The notes beneath the pieces are model-generated. The model made no database searches. It was not told the DNA's origin and was given only the letters and a program-made list of their open reading frames with translations. A DNA stretch of 64,000 nucleotides from contig CP060229.1 in NCBI GenBank assembly GCA_023898585.1, forward strand, positions 75,388 through 139,387, in the 5' to 3' direction. The position numbers were made by a program, and so were the translations under genes. Positions 17,883-49,046 of this stretch are shown in pieces (the first letter of the stretch is position 1; each line of letters begins with the position of its first letter). The stretch comes from Candidatus Nomurabacteria bacterium (GTDB lineage: Bacteria; Patescibacteriota; Minisyncoccia; Phycocordibacterales; UBA918).

Positions 17883-19547
17883 TTATTGCGGAGCGATCAC
17901 ATCTGTTTTTAAGATTCGTGATTGAAAAGAACGGTATATTTCTTTCAGTTCCGGGGAGTTACCGACGGCATATGTCAAAACAATAGCAACTATACCCATG
18001 ACACCGGCCGTTATCCCCTGGATCATTATTCCAACAAAAGTTTCTTGGTTTATTCCCCCCACCACAAAAACCAAAGTCACGTAGGCAGTGACCGCCCCAG
18101 CAATGGTCGCCACACCGGAATGTACAAAAAGTCTCGCCAGTGGACGAAGGTTTATGTTAAAGATTCTTTTTGATAAGACTATAAGTGCAATGAGTTGGAT
18201 ATATTGACCAAGCACAAAAGCTAAGGCCAGGACCAAGACTTCAGAACCCGCAACCCCAGTCAAGCGAAAAGTTTCATTCAAGAATGATTGTAGAGCGGTG
18301 TATTCCGTGTATAAAAACATAAAGCCCGTGGCTAGCGCGACGGAAATTACACCTCCGGCGAGAGCAACAAAAAAAGGAAGGACTGTGCGACCGCCAGCAT
18401 AAAAAGCTCTTATCAACAAAAGCAAAACGGCTTGCGCCAAAAGCGAAATAACAAAAATCGCCAACATAGCGGCCGTCAACCTGGTATCGCTCCAGTTAAA
18501 CTCCCCACTTCCAAGAAGCACGCGCACAATCTGAGCACGCAGAACAATAACCAAACCAATGATAGGAATTGACCAGAAAAATATGTGTCTCAAAGCGGTT
18601 AAGAGTTGTTTGTTGAAGCCCTGTAGGTCACTTTTAGCGTGTAAATAAGAAAGAGTCGGAAAAGCGGCAACAGAGTAACTCATGCCTATAATTACCAAAG
18701 GGACGGATTGCAAATTGAAAGCAAACTGAAAAACCGATACCGACCCAACCGACATCACGGAAGCCATGCCGATTAAAATAAGTAGCACAATTTGATTGAT
18801 TGATAATGTTAGCGCTCTTGGTACGGAGACCAGAAGAATGTTCTTTATTAATCCCCAATCAATTTTGGACGTCGTAAAGAAAGAATATTCGCTCTTTAGC
18901 ACAAACGGTAACTGAATTGCCAGATGTCCCACAGCTCCCAAAACCACCCCGACGACGAGACCGACGAGACCGACTGCAGGATAAAAGAAAGTAATCCCTA
19001 AAATGATTCCAACATTGTACAAAAGTGGGCTGAGGGCATACAGGATAAAACGATGGTTCATCTGTGTTACAACCCCGCACAAACTGGATAAACCCAGCAA
19101 AAACGGTTGGATAAGCAAGATACGCAACAACAGAATCAGACTCTCATACTCTTCCCCAAAACCGGGAAATATATGCAGAACATACCAAGGCGCTAAAAGC
19201 GCCAACAATCCGGCTACCAGCGTATACACCAACAAGAATAGCGAGAACATTTGCGACAAAACTTTCGCGCCACCGGCTGGGTTATTATCCTCAGCGTATC
19301 TGTTCACGAAAGGCAACAGCACATATATCGAAAGAACAGAAGCAAAAAGCACAAATAACAAATCTGGGATGCGAAAAGCGGCATAGTAAAGATCAAGTTC
19401 AATCCCCGCGCCAAAAGTGTGAGCGAGAAGCCTGTCTCTAACAATCGCTAAAATTTGTGATCCAAAAGCAAATAATGCGAGTATGTAAGCAGCCTGATGT
19501 AAACCACGCACCTCACGGTACACAAAGTTGAAAACTCGCTTAACCAT
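17883..19547 (-). CDS. murJ: lipid II flippase MurJ (MviN)
   Basis: 554-aa polytopic protein, N-terminal MurJ pattern (ILAIVRDRLLAHTFGAGIELDLYYAAFRIPDLLF). Confidence 0.8.
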   Translation of the reverse strand: MVKRVFNFVYREVRGLHQAAYILALFAFGSQILAIVRDRLLAHTFGAGIELDLYYAAFRIPDLLFVLFASVLSIYVLLPFVNRYAEDNNPAGGAKVLSQMFSLFLLVYTLVAGLLALLAPWYVLHIFPGFGEEYESLILLLRILLIQPFLLGLSSLCGVVTQMNHRFILYALSPLLYNVGIILGITFFYPAVGLVGLVVGVVLGAVGHLAIQLPFVLKSEYSFFTTSKIDWGLIKNILLVSVPRALTLSINQIVLLILIGMASVMSVGSVSVFQFAFNLQSVPLVIIGMSYSVAAFPTLSYLHAKSDLQGFNKQLLTALRHIFFWSIPIIGLVIVLRAQIVRVLLGSGEFNWSDTRLTAAMLAIFVISLLAQAVLLLLIRAFYAGGRTVLPFFVALAGGVISVALATGFMFLYTEYTALQSFLNETFRLTGVAGSEVLVLALAFVLGQYIQLIALIVLSKRIFNINLRPLARLFVHSGVATIAGAVTAYVTLVFVVGGINQETFVGIMIQGITAGVMGIVAIVLTYAVGNSPELKEIYRSFQSRILKTDVIAPQ

Positions 19548-40861: not shown

Positions 40862-41404
40862 CTACACCTCCTTCACCCAAACCACCGTTTCATCCTCGGC
40901 TTTCCAGCCCAGAAAATTAAGTACTTGCTTTAAAACTAATACTGGCCATCGGCCATCGGCCCGAGCTCGAAAACCTTGAACATAGTAAAAACCAGCATTT
41001 TTCTTATTAGGGTTGTTAGTCAACTCCAATCTAAGCGTACGATCGTCACCACCCCACTTCCTGACTGCCAACATCGACAGTTCTCGCATCAATCGCGCAC
41101 CCAGACCAAGTTTTTGTACAAAAGGCGATATGACAATGTTATTGATGTAAACATGCGGAGTCGGAAAGGTGTCCGCTAAACTAATCTGGCCAGTTCCGAC
41201 AATAATATTTCGATGTAGCAGAAAGATGGTGTGCTCTGACTCACAAAACCGTTTGGTAGAAAGCACAACTGGTCGACAAGTCGCTGTCCGGCCGTGCAGA
41301 ACAGACATTAAATACTTGTATTGTTCCTCCGCTTCAGCTTTCGGCATATGATCAAAAATCTCTTCTGAAACCACTACTTTGATGGTCTGCGGTTTAATTT
41401 CCAT
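40862..41404 (-). CDS. GNAT family N-acetyltransferase
   Basis: acetyl-CoA motif [17 protein letters not shown]; 3' end overlaps prfB upstream region. Confidence 0.6.
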
Positions 41405-41503
41405 TACTGTCTCCTGATGATCAATTGTCTGTAATCAGCAGAGCAGACAATCCTGCGACCAGCAAAACAAAAACATCTCAATGGAGACGTTTTTTGTTTT
41501 CGG

Positions 41504-41576
41504 AGCCAACACACAGAATTGAACTGTGGACCTCATCCTTACCATGGATGCGCTCTACCAACTGAGCTATGTTGGC
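41504..41576 (-). tRNA. tRNA-Thr(GGT)
   Basis: reverse complement GCCAACATAGCTCAGTTGGTAGAGCGCATCCATGGTAAGGATGAGGTCCACAGTTCAATTCTGTGTGTTGGCT; anticodon loop ATGGTAA. Confidence 0.8.
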
Positions 41577-41858
41577 AAAAATTTGCCACACGAAAGCAAA
41601 AACTTTCGTGGCGATAGCATAGCAAATCAGGCAAAAATCCGCCAGCCTTTTGGGCCACCTCCGAGGATCGGTCACAAGTTCTCAGAAAATATATTCCCTC
41701 CGGTCATTATTTTCTGGACTCGCTACCCCGCCTCACTCGCTCGTCATACTTCCTCGCATCATTCCGGCTTTCAATCATCGACAGAAGCCAAGCAGTTGGC
41801 TTCCTGAGGTGTCTCAATTGCAAAATACCCGGAGAGATGTCGGACATTTTGCAACTGA

Positions 41859-41900
41859 CCGCCTCCGAGGATCGAACTCGGGACCTACGGTTTACAAGCG
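41859..41900 (-). pseudogene. tRNA-Thr-like 3'-half fragment (anticodon loop CTTGTAA to acceptor AGGCGG)
   Basis: reverse complement CGCTTGTAAACCGTAGGTCCCGAGTTCGATCCTCGGAGGCGG matches the 3' half of the neighbouring tRNA-Thr but no D-arm/acceptor 5' strand upstream. Confidence 0.5.
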
Positions 41901-41946
41901 AATGAGTGAATAACAAAGAAGTCGATTGTGCTTCTTCTGAACCGTG

Positions 41947-42018
41947 AGCCGTCTCCGAGGATCGAACTCGGGACCTGCGGTTTACGATACCGCCGCTCTA
42001 CAGCTGAGCTAAGACGGC
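41947..42018 (-). tRNA. tRNA-Thr(CGT)
   Basis: reverse complement GCCGTCTTAGCTCAGCTGTAGAGCGGCGGTATCGTAAACCGCAGGTCCCGAGTTCGATCCTCGGAGACGGCT; perfect cloverleaf. Confidence 0.85.
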
Positions 42019-42085
42019 TCACGGGCCAGAAAATATTTAGCCCGATTTTTATGTTTGAGCGAATGAAAATTGTATGATAACTCAT

Positions 42086-42122
42086 ACGATACCGCCACTC
42101 TACCAACTGAGCTAAAGTGGCT
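42086..42122 (-). pseudogene. tRNA-Thr-like 5'-half fragment (acceptor to anticodon CGT)
   Basis: reverse complement GCCACTTTAGCTCAGTTGGTAGAGTGGCGGTATCGTA then unrelated hairpin TGAGTTATCATAC; no 3' half adjacent. Confidence 0.45.
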
Positions 42123-42169
42123 TATTTCTCTATCCAAGCAATGAGCATACCATGAACATTAATCGAACT

Positions 42170-42631
42170 CTAACTCGACAGTTCTCCCCTAGTCTTAGCC
42201 CTCTTACTTACTCGTCTCTCCTTTCTCCCTCTGCCTTTATTCAAAGCCGCATACGTGGGTGAAAGCGAATCACAATTTGGGCAAATAAGTCTCAGATTGT
42301 TTTCTTTGTTGTTTTTGTAATCTCCATCAACATGATCAGCTACGAGTGGAATAAGTCCTGACTTCGGATTTACTTTGGACCAACCACACAAACAACATTT
42401 ATTGTCATATTTTTCTCTGAGGTACTTTTTTATATGTTTAGAAACAACACCGATATTTCTTATACCACTTACCTTCCCTTCCTTCCAATCTTTAATGAAC
42501 TGTCTGTGCTGATATTTTTGCTGACACACATTGCTACAATACTTGTAATCAGCATAAGCTGTCTCTTTTCCACATGATAAACAATTTGGTCTTGGCTTTT
42601 TGTAATTTGGCACCATCCAGTATTCTAACAC
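42170..42631 (-). CDS. HNH endonuclease
   Basis: Cys4 zinc knuckles plus HNH core CCLCGW...LVADHVDGDYKNNKENNLRLICPNCD. Confidence 0.7.
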   Translation of the reverse strand: MLEYWMVPNYKKPRPNCLSCGKETAYADYKYCSNVCQQKYQHRQFIKDWKEGKVSGIRNIGVVSKHIKKYLREKYDNKCCLCGWSKVNPKSGLIPLVADHVDGDYKNNKENNLRLICPNCDSLSPTYAALNKGRGRKERRVSKRAKTRGELSS

Positions 42632-42702
42632 GAACCTCAGACCAAAGAAAAGTCGCTACTAAGGTATAAAAAGGCGATAGGCTTAACGCCTACAGACCAA
42701 AC

Positions 42703-43086
42703 TCACCTTGTCTTTCCTCTTATCTTTTCTTCCTTCTCTATCCATTCCTCATCCCAACCGAAATGGTGAGCGACCTCGTGCCAAATCGTGTTTTCTATAC
42801 ATTCCACAATATCCTGAGGTTCTGAACAAGTGTCCAAAATGGCATTTTTAAAAATGGTGATTTTGTCCGGTAGCCTAAACTTGTCCTCCAGACCACGTTC
42901 CGACAGCGGCACGCCTTCATAAAGCCCAAACAAAACCCCTTCCTCGTCCAAGTCTGTTTCTTCCAACTGTTCCGAGGTCGGCTTATCTGCCAACACGATA
43001 GCCACATTTTTAATGCGCCTCAACACTTCCTCTCCCAACGCTTCAACTCCATTATCAACCAATTTTAAAAATTCCTGATCTGTCAT
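42703..43086 (-). CDS. minimal MMP-like zinc metallopeptidase family protein (COG3824-like)
   Basis: 127 aa with HEVAHHFGWDE (HExxH) near C-terminus. Confidence 0.55.
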   Translation of the reverse strand: MTDQEFLKLVDNGVEALGEEVLRRIKNVAIVLADKPTSEQLEETDLDEEGVLFGLYEGVPLSERGLEDKFRLPDKITIFKNAILDTCSEPQDIVECIENTIWHEVAHHFGWDEEWIEKEEKIRGKTR

Positions 43087-43652: not shown

Positions 43653-43832
43653 AGATAATGAAGTATAGCATCCACTGCACTTTGTTATCTAACAAAAATA
43701 GTTTTGGGTACTACTAGCGCGCTCACAGCTGACCCTGGAACTAAAATCGCATCCAAGGAATTATACCTTTGAAAGGTACCCCTTTCTTAAGACAACTTTT
43801 GCAAGTATTATCACTTAAACAATACAAGCAAT

Positions 43833-44108
43833 ATGTCCAAGAAAGGATACAAGATCTCAGCTGAGATAAAAGCCGAAGTTATCAATAAAATCAAACACGA
43901 AGGCTTGAGTGTTAGTGATACTGCCAACCAATACGGCATCAGTAGTCGAACCATTTATGATTGGCTAGGTACAAAGGCCACGGGTACGGTCAGTCTCCTT
44001 GAACACAACAAACTCAAGAAGGAAAACGAACAACTCAAACAAATCATCGGTGACCTCACCATAAAAATGTCCATTGAGGCTAAAAAGGGGCTCTCCAAGG
44101 GATGGTGA
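43833..44108 (+). CDS. IS3-family transposase OrfA (HTH + leucine zipper)
   Basis: HTH (LSVSDTANQYGISSRTIYDWL) and heptad Leu repeats. Confidence 0.75.
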   Translation: MSKKGYKISAEIKAEVINKIKHEGLSVSDTANQYGISSRTIYDWLGTKATGTVSLLEHNKLKKENEQLKQIIGDLTIKMSIEAKKGLSKGW

Positions 44109-44878
44109 TCGGTTATTCACGTACGCATCACTATTATCACCATAAACAACCTCAAAAGGATTGGCACACCAAGCAACTGATTGAGGCTGTGTTACGTGAG
44201 CACCCAGGCTATGGCCACAAGCGCTTGGCCACACACCTCAAGATCAACAAGAAACGAGTGCTGAGAGTTATGAAGTTGTTTGGTATTAAACCATACCGGA
44301 GAACTACTCCTAAAGTGTTTAAAAAGCCTAAAGGTAGTGTGTTTCCCAACTATTTAATGAGTGAGGAACCACGAGGGCCAGGTGATATATATGCCTCAGA
44401 CTTCACCTATCTTAAATATCGAGGAAAGTGGTTGTATGTGGCTACAGTACTCGATACGTACACTAGAGAGATAGTTGGTGTATCGATATTGACAACACAT
44501 CAGACACAGCTCGTCATTAACGCTTTGGCTTCAGCAGTGCTCCATCGAGCTCCTCCACGGATTATTCATTCCGATCAAGGGAGTGAGTACTGCTCAAAAG
44601 ACTACACTGCCTTAACCCAAAAGCTTGGTATCAAACAGTCCATGAGTGCCCCCGGTTGTCCCTGGGAGAATGGTTACCAAGAGAGTTTCTATAAAGGGTT
44701 CAAATTGGACTTAGGTGACCCAAACCGGTTTGATACTCTCGGTGAGTTAGTGGCTACTATTTATCAGACGATTAATTATTACAATCAAAAACGCATCCAC
44801 TCCGTCTTAAAAGTACCACCTCGGTTGTTTAGAGACCAACATGAGGTATTATTAAAAGACTTGCAAAAGGTGTCTTAA
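44102..44878 (+). CDS. IS3-family transposase OrfB (DDE integrase core, rve)
   Basis: IIHSDQGSEYCSKDY ... CPWENGYQESFYKGFK (DDE with conserved E region). Confidence 0.8.
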   Translation: MVIGYSRTHHYYHHKQPQKDWHTKQLIEAVLREHPGYGHKRLATHLKINKKRVLRVMKLFGIKPYRRTTPKVFKKPKGSVFPNYLMSEEPRGPGDIYASDFTYLKYRGKWLYVATVLDTYTREIVGVSILTTHQTQLVINALASAVLHRAPPRIIHSDQGSEYCSKDYTALTQKLGIKQSMSAPGCPWENGYQESFYKGFKLDLGDPNRFDTLGELVATIYQTINYYNQKRIHSVLKVPPRLFRDQHEVLLKDLQKVS

Positions 44879-45035
44879 TTTTGGGGTATCTTCCACACTC
44901 TCGCGGATATTTTGTTCGTTCTGCGAACTCCAAAATATCTCGCTCCATCGACCCCCACTCGGCGGCTCGCCTCCTTCGCTTCGCTACGGAGTCGGCTTCG
45001 CGCCGCCTCGGTTCAAGTCCCGTTTGGCGGAAAAT

Positions 45036-45078: not shown

Positions 45079-45400
45079 CGCGCCAGACGGGACTTGAACC
45101 CGCAACCTCCCGCGTGCACTGTATCCAAACTTTCGCTGTGGTGTGGACTATATCTTTACCGTGCCAAGTGTCACATTATGACGCTTGATTTAGGTACCCC
45201 GGTATCTAGTCTCTACGGAGCCCTATAACCATGTGTTTTTGCGTTATAGGTTCCCTCGGTATTCGCATATCTTCACCTTGTTTTTAAACAAAGTCTCAAA
45301 CTTAGCCTTCACCGATATCCCGGAATTTTTCAGTTCGCCTTTCGAACGAAAAGCTGCACGTCTACAGGCGGGTGCTCTAACCAAATTGAGCTACCAGCGC
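45079..45400 (-). tRNA. tRNA-Asp(GTC) interrupted by a group I intron in the anticodon loop
   Basis: exon 1 45400..45364 GCGCTGGTAGCTCAATTTGGTTAGAGCACCCGCCTGT; exon 2 45116..45079 CACGCGGGAGGTTGCGGGTTCAAGTCCCGTCTGGCGCG; spliced loop CUGUCAC, G73 discriminator. Confidence 0.7.
45117..45363 (-). other. group I intron (247 nt) within tRNA-Asp
   Basis: P1 with U:G at 5' splice site (exon CUGU pairs intron GCAG), S element AAGAUAUAGUCC, R-like GUAGAGACUAGA, terminal omega-G (…ACAGUG|CAC). Confidence 0.7.
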
Positions 45401-45401
45401 A

Positions 45402-46067
45402 TTAACGCTCGCGCGTTTTTATGAAATTGTCGAAACGAACCTTCTTTCTTTTCAGATGAAGCTTCGAGCACCTATTATACATAGTATTCGCCAATTGCAA
45501 AGCTCCGATGGTACTGAACTGCAAACGTGAGAAGTTTCCTTTACCTGAAGTGAACACACACCCACCTCTGACGCCAGCCTCGTTGAGTAACTTTTTCAAG
45601 TCAACTAAGAAAGACTGACACCCACTAGTAAAGGTAACTTGTAACACTGGGGTAGGACAGGGTCGCTTCTTGTTAACGTAACCAATCCACACATTACCAT
45701 CACCATCAAAATATCCTCGAACAAAATCGCCAAGAAATTGTTTAGGAATATCTGGTAAGGATAAACGTTTAGACTTTCCGGGACAAAAACCAAGCTGTAG
45801 CAAATCATAATAAATTTCTTTACTGCCAATTTGTAAACGGTAGACTGAACCTGAATCAGAAACACGCTTAGACACAACATGGTTGGAACACATTATCTTA
45901 CGAATGGATAAAATTATGTCTCTGTCAGCGGAATGAAGAGCCAAAAAATGCGTATTCCGTTTAGTCTGCACCATATTGCCGTCAGCAGCGAAGAAACCTA
46001 GTACATAGGCCATATCCGCAGACCAACGTTTGAAAAAGTCTGTATTTACCATTCGCTGAATTGGCAT
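45402..46067 (-). CDS. LAGLIDADG homing endonuclease (double-motif, free-standing)
   Basis: two LAGLIDADG motifs: YVLGFFAADGNM and FVRGYFDGDGNV; stop codon 1 nt before tRNA-Asp 5' end. Confidence 0.8.
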   Translation of the reverse strand: MPIQRMVNTDFFKRWSADMAYVLGFFAADGNMVQTKRNTHFLALHSADRDIILSIRKIMCSNHVVSKRVSDSGSVYRLQIGSKEIYYDLLQLGFCPGKSKRLSLPDIPKQFLGDFVRGYFDGDGNVWIGYVNKKRPCPTPVLQVTFTSGCQSFLVDLKKLLNEAGVRGGCVFTSGKGNFSRLQFSTIGALQLANTMYNRCSKLHLKRKKVRFDNFIKTRER

Positions 46068-47648: not shown

Positions 47649-48518
47649 CTAGCCTTCTCCTTTTTCATCAGTATCACAACACTCCTTTATCACAGCCTTG
47701 AGTTCAGGGCAATCGACAGCGTACGCTAATATTGCTCGCAAATAACTTTCCGGATCACCGGTTGTAATCCACTTTCCACCTTCAACCTCCTTCGCTAAAA
47801 ACCGTCCTCCTTCTTGAATATAGTTTCTGATCGCGTCAGTAATCCATAATTCGTCCCCTTTCCCGCGTGCGGTGCGCGCCAAAATGTCGACAATCTCTCG
47901 ATTGAGAACATATCTCCCGAAAGCGGCGTGCCTCGACGGAGCTTCTTTCTTGTCCGGTTTTTCTATAATGTCTTCAAGTTCATTGCTGTCCGCACGATAT
48001 TTGACGATTCCATATTTTTCCACTTCATCTTCCGAGACTTCTTGCACGCCCAATATCGGCGCTTGCTCTTTCTTGTGCAGGTCAATTAACTGTTTCGCGA
48101 AAGGCACTTTGCTTTTTACCAAATCGTCACCAAAGGCATAAATGAAAGGATCGTCCCCTATCACACTGGCGGCCGACAAAAGTGGTGTGCCGTTGCCGTA
48201 AGGACCTTTTTGTCGCACGTAGATAAAGTTTGCCATGGTCGATATTTTTCGCACCTGTTCAAGGCGCTTGTTTTTTCCGGTTTTTTCCAAGCTTCGCTCC
48301 AATTCGAAAGACCGATCGAAGTGATCTTCGAGTGGCTTTTTGTCCCACCGTGTTACCATGATGATGTCCTTGATTCCGGCATCAACCAATTCTTCTACTA
48401 AATACTGAATGATCGGCTTATCAATAATCGGCAACATTTCTTTCGGTTGCGATTTGGTGGCCGGCAACAATCTGGTTCCCGAGCCAGCTACCGCAATTAC
48501 CGCTTTTGTTATTTCCAT
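47649..48518 (-). CDS. galU: UTP--glucose-1-phosphate uridylyltransferase
   Basis: AVIAVAGSGTRLLPATKSQPKEMLPIIDKP; start at MEITKAV (48518); the ORF's upstream extension runs through a tRNA and tandem repeats and is not coding. Confidence 0.8.
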   Translation of the reverse strand: MEITKAVIAVAGSGTRLLPATKSQPKEMLPIIDKPIIQYLVEELVDAGIKDIIMVTRWDKKPLEDHFDRSFELERSLEKTGKNKRLEQVRKISTMANFIYVRQKGPYGNGTPLLSAASVIGDDPFIYAFGDDLVKSKVPFAKQLIDLHKKEQAPILGVQEVSEDEVEKYGIVKYRADSNELEDIIEKPDKKEAPSRHAAFGRYVLNREIVDILARTARGKGDELWITDAIRNYIQEGGRFLAKEVEGGKWITTGDPESYLRAILAYAVDCPELKAVIKECCDTDEKGEG

Positions 48519-48597
48519 ATATCGAGAGATTATAACACTATAGCCGGCTTGGGAAAATGAAAAAGGCTGGCAAGGAAGCCAGTCTTTTTCATTCTTG

Positions 48598-48668
48598 TTG
48601 CGGGGCCCGGAATCGAACCGGGGTCTGGAGGTTATGAGCCTCCCGAGGTACCTCTCCTCTACCCCGCT
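48598..48668 (-). tRNA. tRNA-Met(CAT), initiator-like (1:72 mismatch)
   Basis: reverse complement AGCGGGGTAGAGGAGAGGTACCTCGGGAGGCTCATAACCTCCAGACCCCGGTTCGATTCCGGGCCCCGCAA. Confidence 0.65.
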
Positions 48669-49046
48669 GTAATATTCATTCTTTTCTCCTCTCATCTTAA
48701 CGGAATCTCGGGAGGTTATGAGTCTTATGATTTTTCTGCTCGGTACCTCTCCTCTACCCCGCTGTAATATTCATTCTTTTCTCCTCTCATCTTAACGGAA
48801 TCTCGGGAGGTTATGAGTCTTATGATTTTTCTGCTCGGTACCTCTCCTCTACCCCGCTGTAATATTCATTCTTTTCTCCTCTCATCTTAACGGAATCTCG
48901 GGAGGTTATGAGTCTTATGATTTTTCTGCTCGGTACCTCTCCTCTACCCCGCTGTAATATTCATTCTTTTCTCCTCTCATCTTAACGGAATCTCGGGAGG
49001 TTATGAGTCTTATGATTTTTCTGCTCGGTACCTCTCCTCTACCCCG
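48669..49046. repeat. tandem repeat, 95-bp unit, about 4.6 copies, derived from upstream region + 5' half of the adjacent tRNA-Met
   Basis: unit TCTCGGGAGGTTATGAGTCTTATGATTTTTCTGCTCGGTACCTCTCCTCTACCCCGCTGTAATATTCATTCTTTTCTCCTCTCATCTTAACGGAA starting at 48706, 48801, 48896, 48991, with a variant copy spanning the tRNA itself. Confidence 0.9.

Follow-up and report, generated by a model that had tools for sequence, protein, structure and literature searches.

We analyzed a 64,000-nucleotide (nt) stretch of DNA, here called the window, from a Candidatus Nomurabacteria bacterium (GenBank assembly GCA_023898585.1, contig CP060229.1, positions 75,388 to 139,387). Between window positions 41504 and 43086, a group of tRNA-Thr genes and tRNA-Thr gene fragments lies downstream of an open reading frame (ORF) for a small HNH endonuclease. 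An earlier annotation made from the letters alone (the sequence-only reading) had described the region as a tRNA-Thr hotspot. Loci of related genomes carry L numbers, the intact tRNA-Thr(CGT) gene of the window is called X, and the fragments are called D5', D3', and F3. The allele that carries the HNH gene is referred to as filled and the allele that lacks it as empty. The features are as follows.

42703 to 43086, minus strand: Zincin_1 gene (Pfam E value, 6e-28), the left homology arm, with a recombination junction inside it between 42910 and 42827.
42020 to 42726, minus strand: left allele-specific block of 707 nt by global alignment against the empty allele L103, holding the last 24 nt of the Zincin gene, the HNH ORF, D5', and the upstream flank of X.
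42170 to 42631, minus strand: free-standing HNH (His-Me finger) endonuclease ORF; the maximal ORF is 153 amino acids (aa) from a GTG, with the likely start near 42616.
42121 to 42085, minus strand: D5', a tRNA 5' half (tRNA positions 1 to 37, GCCACTTTAGCTCAGTTGGTAGAGTGGCGGTATCGTA) ending in the anticodon loop with ATCGTA.
41899 to 42084, minus strand: the segment between the halves, made of a 66-nt upstream flank, X, and a 48-nt downstream flank (186 nt, or 189 nt with CTT).
41935 to 42031, minus strand: inverted repeat I1 enclosing X, with 20-nt arms (41935 to 41954 and 42012 to 42031), 18/20 paired.
41947 to 42018, minus strand: X, intact tRNA-Thr(CGT), found by ARAGORN and Rfam (61.2 bits; gathering score, 29).
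41898 to 41857, minus strand: D3', the 3' half of a tRNA-Thr gene, 32/33 to X (E value, 1e-11), with homology secure from G35 (41895).
41723 to 41943, minus strand: right allele-specific block of 221 nt by alignment against the empty allele.
41723 to 41856, minus strand: allele-specific DNA after D3', with an 18-bp hairpin (41814 to 41858), an 8-bp hairpin, and inverted repeat I3; missing from L102 and L103.
41653 to 41671, minus strand: F3, a T-loop, T-stem, and acceptor 3' strand (AGGTGGC; CGATCCTCGGAGGTGGC), 17/17 to the 3' end of the HNH-linked tRNA of L087.
41643 to 41657: terminator-like hairpin after F3.
41504 to 41576, minus strand: tRNA-Thr(GGU), intact (Rfam, 67.2 bits).

Both intact tRNA-Thr genes proposed by the sequence-only reading were recovered, and they are the only intact pair that ARAGORN or Rfam found in the region. 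X passes as a tRNA, with a cloverleaf over the family threshold and a Thr anticodon, and is presumed to be the working tRNA-Thr(CGU) gene. Its acceptor stem is GCCGTCT/AGACGGC, and its D-loop (AGCTGTA) has a single G where two are usual, one G short of canonical. The sole tRNA-Thr(CGT) of the HNH-less siblings L101 to L103 is 96% identical to X and has the canonical D-loop AGTTGGTA. The extended acceptor helix of X, first put at 13 bp, proved to be longer. In the predicted fold, a cloverleaf sits atop a helix of ~21 bp (-53.5 kcal/mol; z = -6.6), and leader and trailer pair across ~14 bp beyond the acceptor stem. The inverted repeat is confined to the HNH-bearing allele, and the flanks of the L103 tRNA are unpaired. 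Short-read assemblies break within the tRNA-Thr(GGT) gene, and the contigs of L001 and L005 end inside it.

The half-tRNAs and the T-arm/acceptor fragment are also real, at coordinates that differ by 1 to 10 nt from those first assigned (by 1 nt for the 5' half, and 41653 to 41671 rather than 41664 to 41680 for the fragment). D5' was called by neither ARAGORN nor Rfam and matched a relative's tRNA-Thr(CGT) in a window-wide BLAST search (E value, 3e-6). It begins 48 nt past the HNH stop codon, at the place that an intact tRNA-Thr(CGT) occupies in nine other HNH loci. Its best matches are HNH-linked tRNAs (34/37 in L093 and 32/37 in L087), and it mismatches X in the acceptor stem. For D3', the identity is 36/37 to the HNH-linked tRNA of L087 and 35/37 to X, and T43 is common to D3' and the HNH-linked tRNAs. 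The TGT anticodon assigned to this half is poorly supported. Secure homology begins only at G35, so a tRNA-Thr(UGU) remnant was rejected as unsupported. When joined in silico, D5' and D3' are called as a tRNA-Thr(CGT) with one A4.C69 mismatch and a G1.U72 pair. Both are absent from the empty allele. F3 is also found in the HNH-less allele and is therefore an older scar than the halves. Its acceptor strand is that of the tRNA-Thr(CGT) in the outgroups L007 and L008, which marks it as a likely scar of an ancestral-type tRNA-Thr(CGU). The DNA around the 5' half (42040 to 42135, minus strand) is predicted to form two local hairpins (z = -4.7), one from GCCACUUUA.../...UAGAGUGGC and one from GUAUGA/UCAUAC, followed by AAUUUUCAUU; this modeled fold may now act as a 3' end structure of the HNH transcript.

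The trinucleotide GTA stands on both sides of the 186- to 189-nt segment that parts the halves. An Rfam scan of the segment at E values of ≤10 gave nothing except tRNA, and no HNH-ORF remnant was detected in the 186 nt. Two candidate origins were rejected. A decayed second HNH gene upstream of X had been considered on a 12/14 match to the NCDSL-coding part of the HNH ORF, and a hidden Markov model of 120 family members finds none in 41577 to 42169. A miniature derivative of the nearby IS3 element is excluded by segment ends that are unlike the IS3 inverted repeats. The direct repeat AGCGAATGA was confirmed to occur only at 41897 and 42058, and it failed as an element boundary, being at chance level: a repeated 9-mer was present in 9% of shuffles of the 281-bp region, in 20% of 281-bp tiles of the window, and in 69% of 593-bp tiles. 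The 1.3 kb around the locus holds several unrelated exact repeats of 9 to 11 nt.

The neighbors named by the sequence-only reading upstream of the tRNA genes (HNH endonuclease, minimal metalloprotease [Zincin_1], Zn-ribbon protein, and an IS3-type rve ORF) were all upheld by PHROG and Pfam searches. The HNH ORF matched three PHROG HNH families (E values of 7e-15, 3e-14, and 3e-13) and, weakly, Pfam HNH models (E value, 0.04); a sequence search for a solved structure gave none. More than 1,100 homologues at 62 to 74% identity were found, nearly all in Patescibacteria. Two of them are named HNH endonuclease by NCBI, and the same protein occurs in Candidatus Nomurabacteria and Kaiserbacteria assemblies. 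The family motif is CxxC...DH...N...N...CxxC(D/H), in which the zinc-ribbon and DH...N...N parts are invariant (C79, C82, H100, N108, N112, C117, and C120). The motif ends in CPNCD in the clade of the candidate phyla radiation (CPR, i.e., Patescibacteria) versus CPNCH in phage members, with Asp for the last His.

We examined the genomic context of the HNH gene in 10 independent CPR loci (the window, L087, L088, L090, L093, L097, L098, L099, L106, and L110). A tRNA-Thr(CGT) lies downstream on the same strand in all 10, at distances from overlap to ~55 nt, and tRNA-Thr(GGT) lies just upstream in 6. The other neighbors vary (prfB, ribosomal protein L10, a glycosyltransferase, an M48 peptidase, and tRNA-Gly). 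Relatives of the HNH protein at 40 to 63% identity were present on 244 viral contigs. Among the best 80 of these, a tRNA lies within 1.5 kb in 75 cases, and in 64 cases a tRNA on the same strand begins no more than 200 nt downstream, mostly Thr(TGT) and also Lys(TTT) and Gln(TTG). Relatives in cultured phages are annotated HNH endonucleases abutting tRNA genes.

Comparison with close relatives revealed empty, filled, and mosaic alleles. The HNH gene is present in L104, L005, and L006 and absent in the siblings L101 to L103, whose Zincin protein is 91% identical to that of the window and whose flanks are 95.5% (left) and 98.4 to 99.6% (right) identical. The empty allele runs from the Zn-ribbon and Zincin genes through 85 nt, a single tRNA-Thr(CGT), and 4 nt to window position 41722 and onward to tRNA-Thr(GGT) and the GNAT gene. 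Its 85 nt stand in place of the 707-nt left block and are unrelated to it, and its tRNA has the X-type acceptor GCCGTCT/AGACGGC without a flanking inverted repeat. The left block shows zero differences between the window, L104, L005, and L006. L104 is a mosaic. Its sequence left of 42910 is that of the empty-allele haplotype (34 single-nucleotide polymorphisms in the Zn-ribbon gene and 3 in Zincin), from 42909 to its contig end at 41944 it is without differences from the window, and the empty-allele variants at 42827 to 42734 are not found in it. This switch of haplotype places a recombination junction within the Zincin gene. Since the HNH segment is identical between strains that differ by ~6% in the left flank, it has moved recently by homologous recombination, with part of Zincin co-converted. 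The L104 pattern is what the copying of an endonuclease cassette, along with some flanking sequence, into another background would be expected to produce, and the three kinds of allele together suggest that the cassette is still moving. The outgroups L007 and L008 lack the HNH gene at their tRNA-Thr(CGT); they were the only 2 of 80 GTDB representative loci, collected in a synteny search by Zincin, that share the tRNA-Thr neighborhood.

A third allele of this species group was observed in L101 (1281 to 1330, equivalent to window 41720 to 41685). Its break lies inside the hairpin CAGAAAATA/TATTTTCTG, where the palindrome TATTTTCGAAAATA results, and beyond the break a MurD-like gene takes the place of F3, tRNA-Thr(GGT), and the GNAT gene.

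The window belongs to a bacterial chromosome of the Patescibacteria and is not phage DNA. Housekeeping genes flank the locus on the minus strand (CTP synthase, FtsX, FtsE, release factor 2, GNAT acetyltransferase, NAD-ligase, and GatA), the window proteins have identical copies in GCA_020428745.1, and the relatives of the Zincin gene are all in Patescibacteria genomes. A phage or prophage origin of the locus was rejected because pyrG, ftsEX, prfB, ligA, and gatA lie in the window. The tRNA-Thr(GGT) region was the sole blastn match to a phage collection, and exact-match searches of viral contigs with the 3' half, with X plus flank, and with D3' plus flank returned zero matches. L005 and L006, which are independent assemblies, repeat the whole arrangement at 99.4 to 99.9% identity, so it is not an assembly artifact.

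We consider it probable that a free-standing HNH homing-endonuclease cassette landed at this site of a Patescibacteria chromosome and that recombination left the scars seen there. Four features of a free-standing homing endonuclease were found, namely, the HNH fold, presence or absence at the locus, co-conversion, and a constant association with a conserved, putative target gene; site-specific cleavage of the empty allele is predicted. The HNH ORF is thus the key element of the locus and not just a neighbor. The cassette appears to be a variant, chromosomal and specific to one anticodon, of the homing endonucleases that accompany tRNA genes in phages. D5' and D3' would be two pieces of its own tRNA-Thr(CGU), now decaying; D3' is probably the piece that completes D5'. 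The sequence-only reading had X inserted in an older tRNA-Thr-like gene. X does lie between two pieces of such a gene, but the sibling alleles show that the split gene is not older: the HNH-less siblings have only the intact-type tRNA, which indicates that the split gene arrived with the HNH gene.

The endonuclease would most likely cut the tRNA-Thr(CGU) genes of HNH-less chromosomes, and an HNH-bearing copy would then be the template for repair of the break, the homology arms being provided by the tRNA genes and flanking genes. In the present lineage, the cassette's tRNA appears to have been broken in the anticodon loop and parted by the 186- to 189-nt segment that carries the working tRNA-Thr(CGU) of the species. 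The GTA on both sides would fit the fill-in of a short staggered break or a microhomology-guided templated insertion. The gene order here is unlike the usual tRNA-Thr(GGU)-HNH-tRNA-Thr(CGU), and at the first entry into the lineage an illegitimate repair may have left the nested arrangement. We infer this origin of the nesting with modest support. The halves and F3 would now be nonfunctional scars, the tRNA being supplied by X.

Several points weigh against this interpretation. Cleavage activity and target site are predictions for every member of the HNH family. In other HNH-bearing genomes, the tRNA-Thr(CGT) beside the HNH gene is intact and canonical despite the risk of self-cleavage. The joined halves pair imperfectly, at A4.C69 and G1.U72, and the matches of D3' to X and to an HNH-linked tRNA differ by a single position, so that D3' may be a partial duplicate of X. 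Apart from one short motif (see below), the flanks of X within the segment have no match in the empty allele that could point to the source of the insert. By reasoning, the nested order cannot be derived from any single simple recombination event; Campbell-type integration, ends-in integration, and excision with reintegration between tRNA copies were rejected on reasoning alone, as they give full-length hybrid tRNAs and never halves. Finally, the identity of 62 to 74% over >1,100 proteins is higher than would be expected if the gene were purely selfish, and a host function is possible.

A more far-reaching form of the cassette interpretation seems to us rather unlikely, though not fanciful. 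The CPR HNH clade would be a chromosomal homing system dedicated to tRNA-Thr(CGU), a target that the cell can briefly spare since tRNA-Thr(UGU) can read ACG. The universally conserved flanking tRNA-Thr genes would act as portable homology arms that allow movement between distant Patescibacteria. The nesting would be a form of self-protection, in which the cassette's own target tRNA was destroyed at the cut site and its function passed to a D-loop-variant tRNA held in the 21-bp helix.

Among the rival explanations, serial integration and excision of integrase-driven elements at tRNA-Thr, with part of the tRNA duplicated in each event, the elements later shrunk to tens of nucleotides and the HNH gene a bystander, is improbable. 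Integrases that target tRNA genes usually cross over in the anticodon loop and T-loop, and these are the break points seen here, with two 3' fragments downstream of X. Duplications of the tRNA-Thr(GGT) 3' end also bracket inserts of 150 to 170 nt in L007 (7040 to 7066 and 7211 to 7236) and L097 (4740 to 4757 and 4912 to 4930). However, integration of this kind leaves no free 5' half, and the new DNA, instead of one repeat-bounded island, consists of a 707-nt block on one side of X and a 221-nt block on the other. Any islands between the fragments would be only 48 and ~185 nt long. A Pfam scan of 20 of the larger ORFs (~110 aa or longer), most of them at ~36 to 54 kb, showed no integrase; the sole recombinase-like ORF is the DDE (rve) transposase of an insertion sequence (IS) that the siblings do not have. 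By exact match, the fragments are on no viral contig, the halves resemble HNH-linked tRNAs, and D5' occupies the cassette's tRNA position. The sequence-only reading was therefore right about a recombination hotspot at the tRNA gene and not about the agent, for which the larger ORFs at ~36 to 54 kb gave no integrase match.

About equally improbable is a local tandem duplication of tRNA-Thr(CGU) units followed by random deletion and decay, without involvement of the endonuclease. Duplicated flank-plus-tRNA units are hinted at by a 10-nt motif (ATATTTTCTG...GTGA; P ~ 0.02) that the upstream flank of X shares, in a similar register, with the DNA before F3, and the locus has seen other rearrangements, such as the L101 breakpoint and an inverted tRNA in L007. 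But random deletion would not favor two breaks in the same 3 to 5 nt of the anticodon loop, the halves co-occur with the HNH gene and are absent from the HNH-less siblings, and the acceptor type of the halves differs from that of X.

We regard as extremely improbable a functional interrupted tRNA in which the halves are exons and the 186-nt insert is an intron or processing cassette that releases the nested tRNA before the halves are joined: the break falls on or beside position 37/38 or 36/37, the place of tRNA introns, and group I introns occur in the tRNA-Asp of the window and the tRNA-Thr(GGT) of relatives, but no junction register gives both a U-ending 5' exon and a G-ending intron, 41400 to 42300 has no RF00028 match at E values of ≤10 (the tRNA-Asp intron, as a positive control, scores 34.4 bits), the sequences beside the halves are direct repeats rather than complementary and form no bulge-helix-bulge, the 5' half region folds as two local hairpins, the acceptor is mismatched with G1.U72 instead of the usual G1-C72, and the arrangement is absent in siblings while an intact gene with the same anticodon is present. 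The related suggestion that the halves with a 31-nt insert form an intron-bearing tRNA also fell: ARAGORN accepts that edited construct only, with a noncanonical 31/32 intron, Rfam detects only tRNA in the region, and on the native sequence the ARAGORN intron mode calls X alone.

Other elements lie near the locus and in relatives. An unannotated tRNA-Asp(GUC) at 45079 to 45400 (minus strand) is split between nt 35 and 36 by a 247-nt group I intron (45117 to 45363). The intron matches RF00028 with an E value of 4e-7, below the gathering score; its core is AAGATATAGTCC, and the last nucleotide is U in the 5' exon and G in the intron. The exon sequences agree with the L007 tRNA-Asp, and the gene was missed by ARAGORN and by the Rfam gathering scan. 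A free-standing LAGLIDADG endonuclease ORF (45402 to 46067, minus strand) ends 2 nt upstream of this tRNA-Asp, and in L106 (1202 to 1861) a LAGLIDADG ORF likewise abuts tRNA-Asp, two genes before the HNH gene and tRNA-Thr(CGT). With this pair, the cluster holds a second case of an endonuclease gene next to a tRNA gene. In L093 (2659 to 2937) and L097 (4467 to 4757), the tRNA-Thr(GGT) upstream of the HNH gene is interrupted after nt 36 by an insert of ~205 to 230 nt with a group I-like core (AAGATACAGTCTAA), which gives a weak RF00028 match in L093 (15 bits) and none in L097.

The IS3-family element lies at 43769 to 44895, with an rve ORF and the inverted repeats ACCCC..TTAAGACA.CTTTTGCAAGT. 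It replaces ~620 nt, which in L104 and L102 hold most of an ICMT/PEMT-family methyltransferase gene. Elsewhere in the window, ARAGORN but not Rfam called a 95-nt tRNA-Leu(CAG) at 18471 to 18565 (minus strand); the call lies inside a 554-aa ORF (17883 to 19547) and is thus probably a false positive. A tRNA-Met at 48597 to 48668 (minus strand) lies inside the 5' end of a 348-aa ORF (47649 to 48695). Given this overlap and an NTP_transferase domain that begins only at residue 64, the N-terminal extension of the ORF is probably spurious.

The arrangement explains the fragmentation of this tRNA cluster in metagenome assemblies. Standard tRNA finders overlook half-tRNAs, a nested tRNA, and an intron-split tRNA-Asp, so that estimates of the tRNA complement of reduced genomes become distorted. 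The locus can serve as a natural marker of recombination among uncultivated bacteria, and its ORF is a candidate small nuclease (~150 aa) that may recognize a tRNA gene sequence.

Among known systems, group I introns in CPR tRNAs have been mentioned in passing (PMC8172020). The attachment-site duplications left by the integrases of prophages and genomic islands resemble the locus in having partial tRNA copies downstream of an intact gene and breaks in the anticodon loop and T-loop. In contrast to them, the locus includes a 5' half, X is bordered on either side by new DNA, and neither an integrase (among the larger ORFs scanned) nor an island is present. In phage T4, the free-standing HNH endonuclease gene mobE and the nrdB intron take part in collaborative or trans homing, the endonuclease gene standing beside its interrupted target (PMC2790892). 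The likeness is a free-standing HNH gene beside a gene interrupted in its probable target region, an interruption that would protect it from cutting. The difference is that the interruption at our locus is not a self-splicing intron and that function would come from a second, nested intact tRNA gene.

HNH genes of phage tRNA arrays (PHROG 14736, 1271, and 10822) belong to the same protein family (35 to 63% identical) and lie directly upstream of a tRNA gene; annotated examples stand beside tRNA-Gly in Streptomyces phages and occur in jumbo phages and cyanophages. Unlike these, the CPR clade is chromosomal, has CPNCD rather than CPNCH, and is tied to one anticodon, and the window pairs the HNH gene with a split copy of its tRNA. 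Our literature searches found no account of a chromosomal HNH family in Patescibacteria that keeps to tRNA-Thr(CGU). The closest characterized system is SegB of phages T4 and T6, which cuts within tRNA genes, is inherited along with the tRNA genes that flank it, and rearranges tRNA loci (PMC2330249 and PMC13096335). As here, a free-standing endonuclease gene stands among tRNA genes and is present or absent among close relatives. SegB has a GIY-YIG fold, resides in phage genomes, and shows no tRNA isotype preference, whereas the CPR clade has an HNH fold, is chromosomal, accompanies tRNA-Thr(CGU) in 10 of 10 contexts, and has a predicted activity. Free-standing homing endonucleases linked to tRNA genes are known from large phages; here, a family of this kind resides in chromosomes across Patescibacteria and keeps to a single anticodon class.

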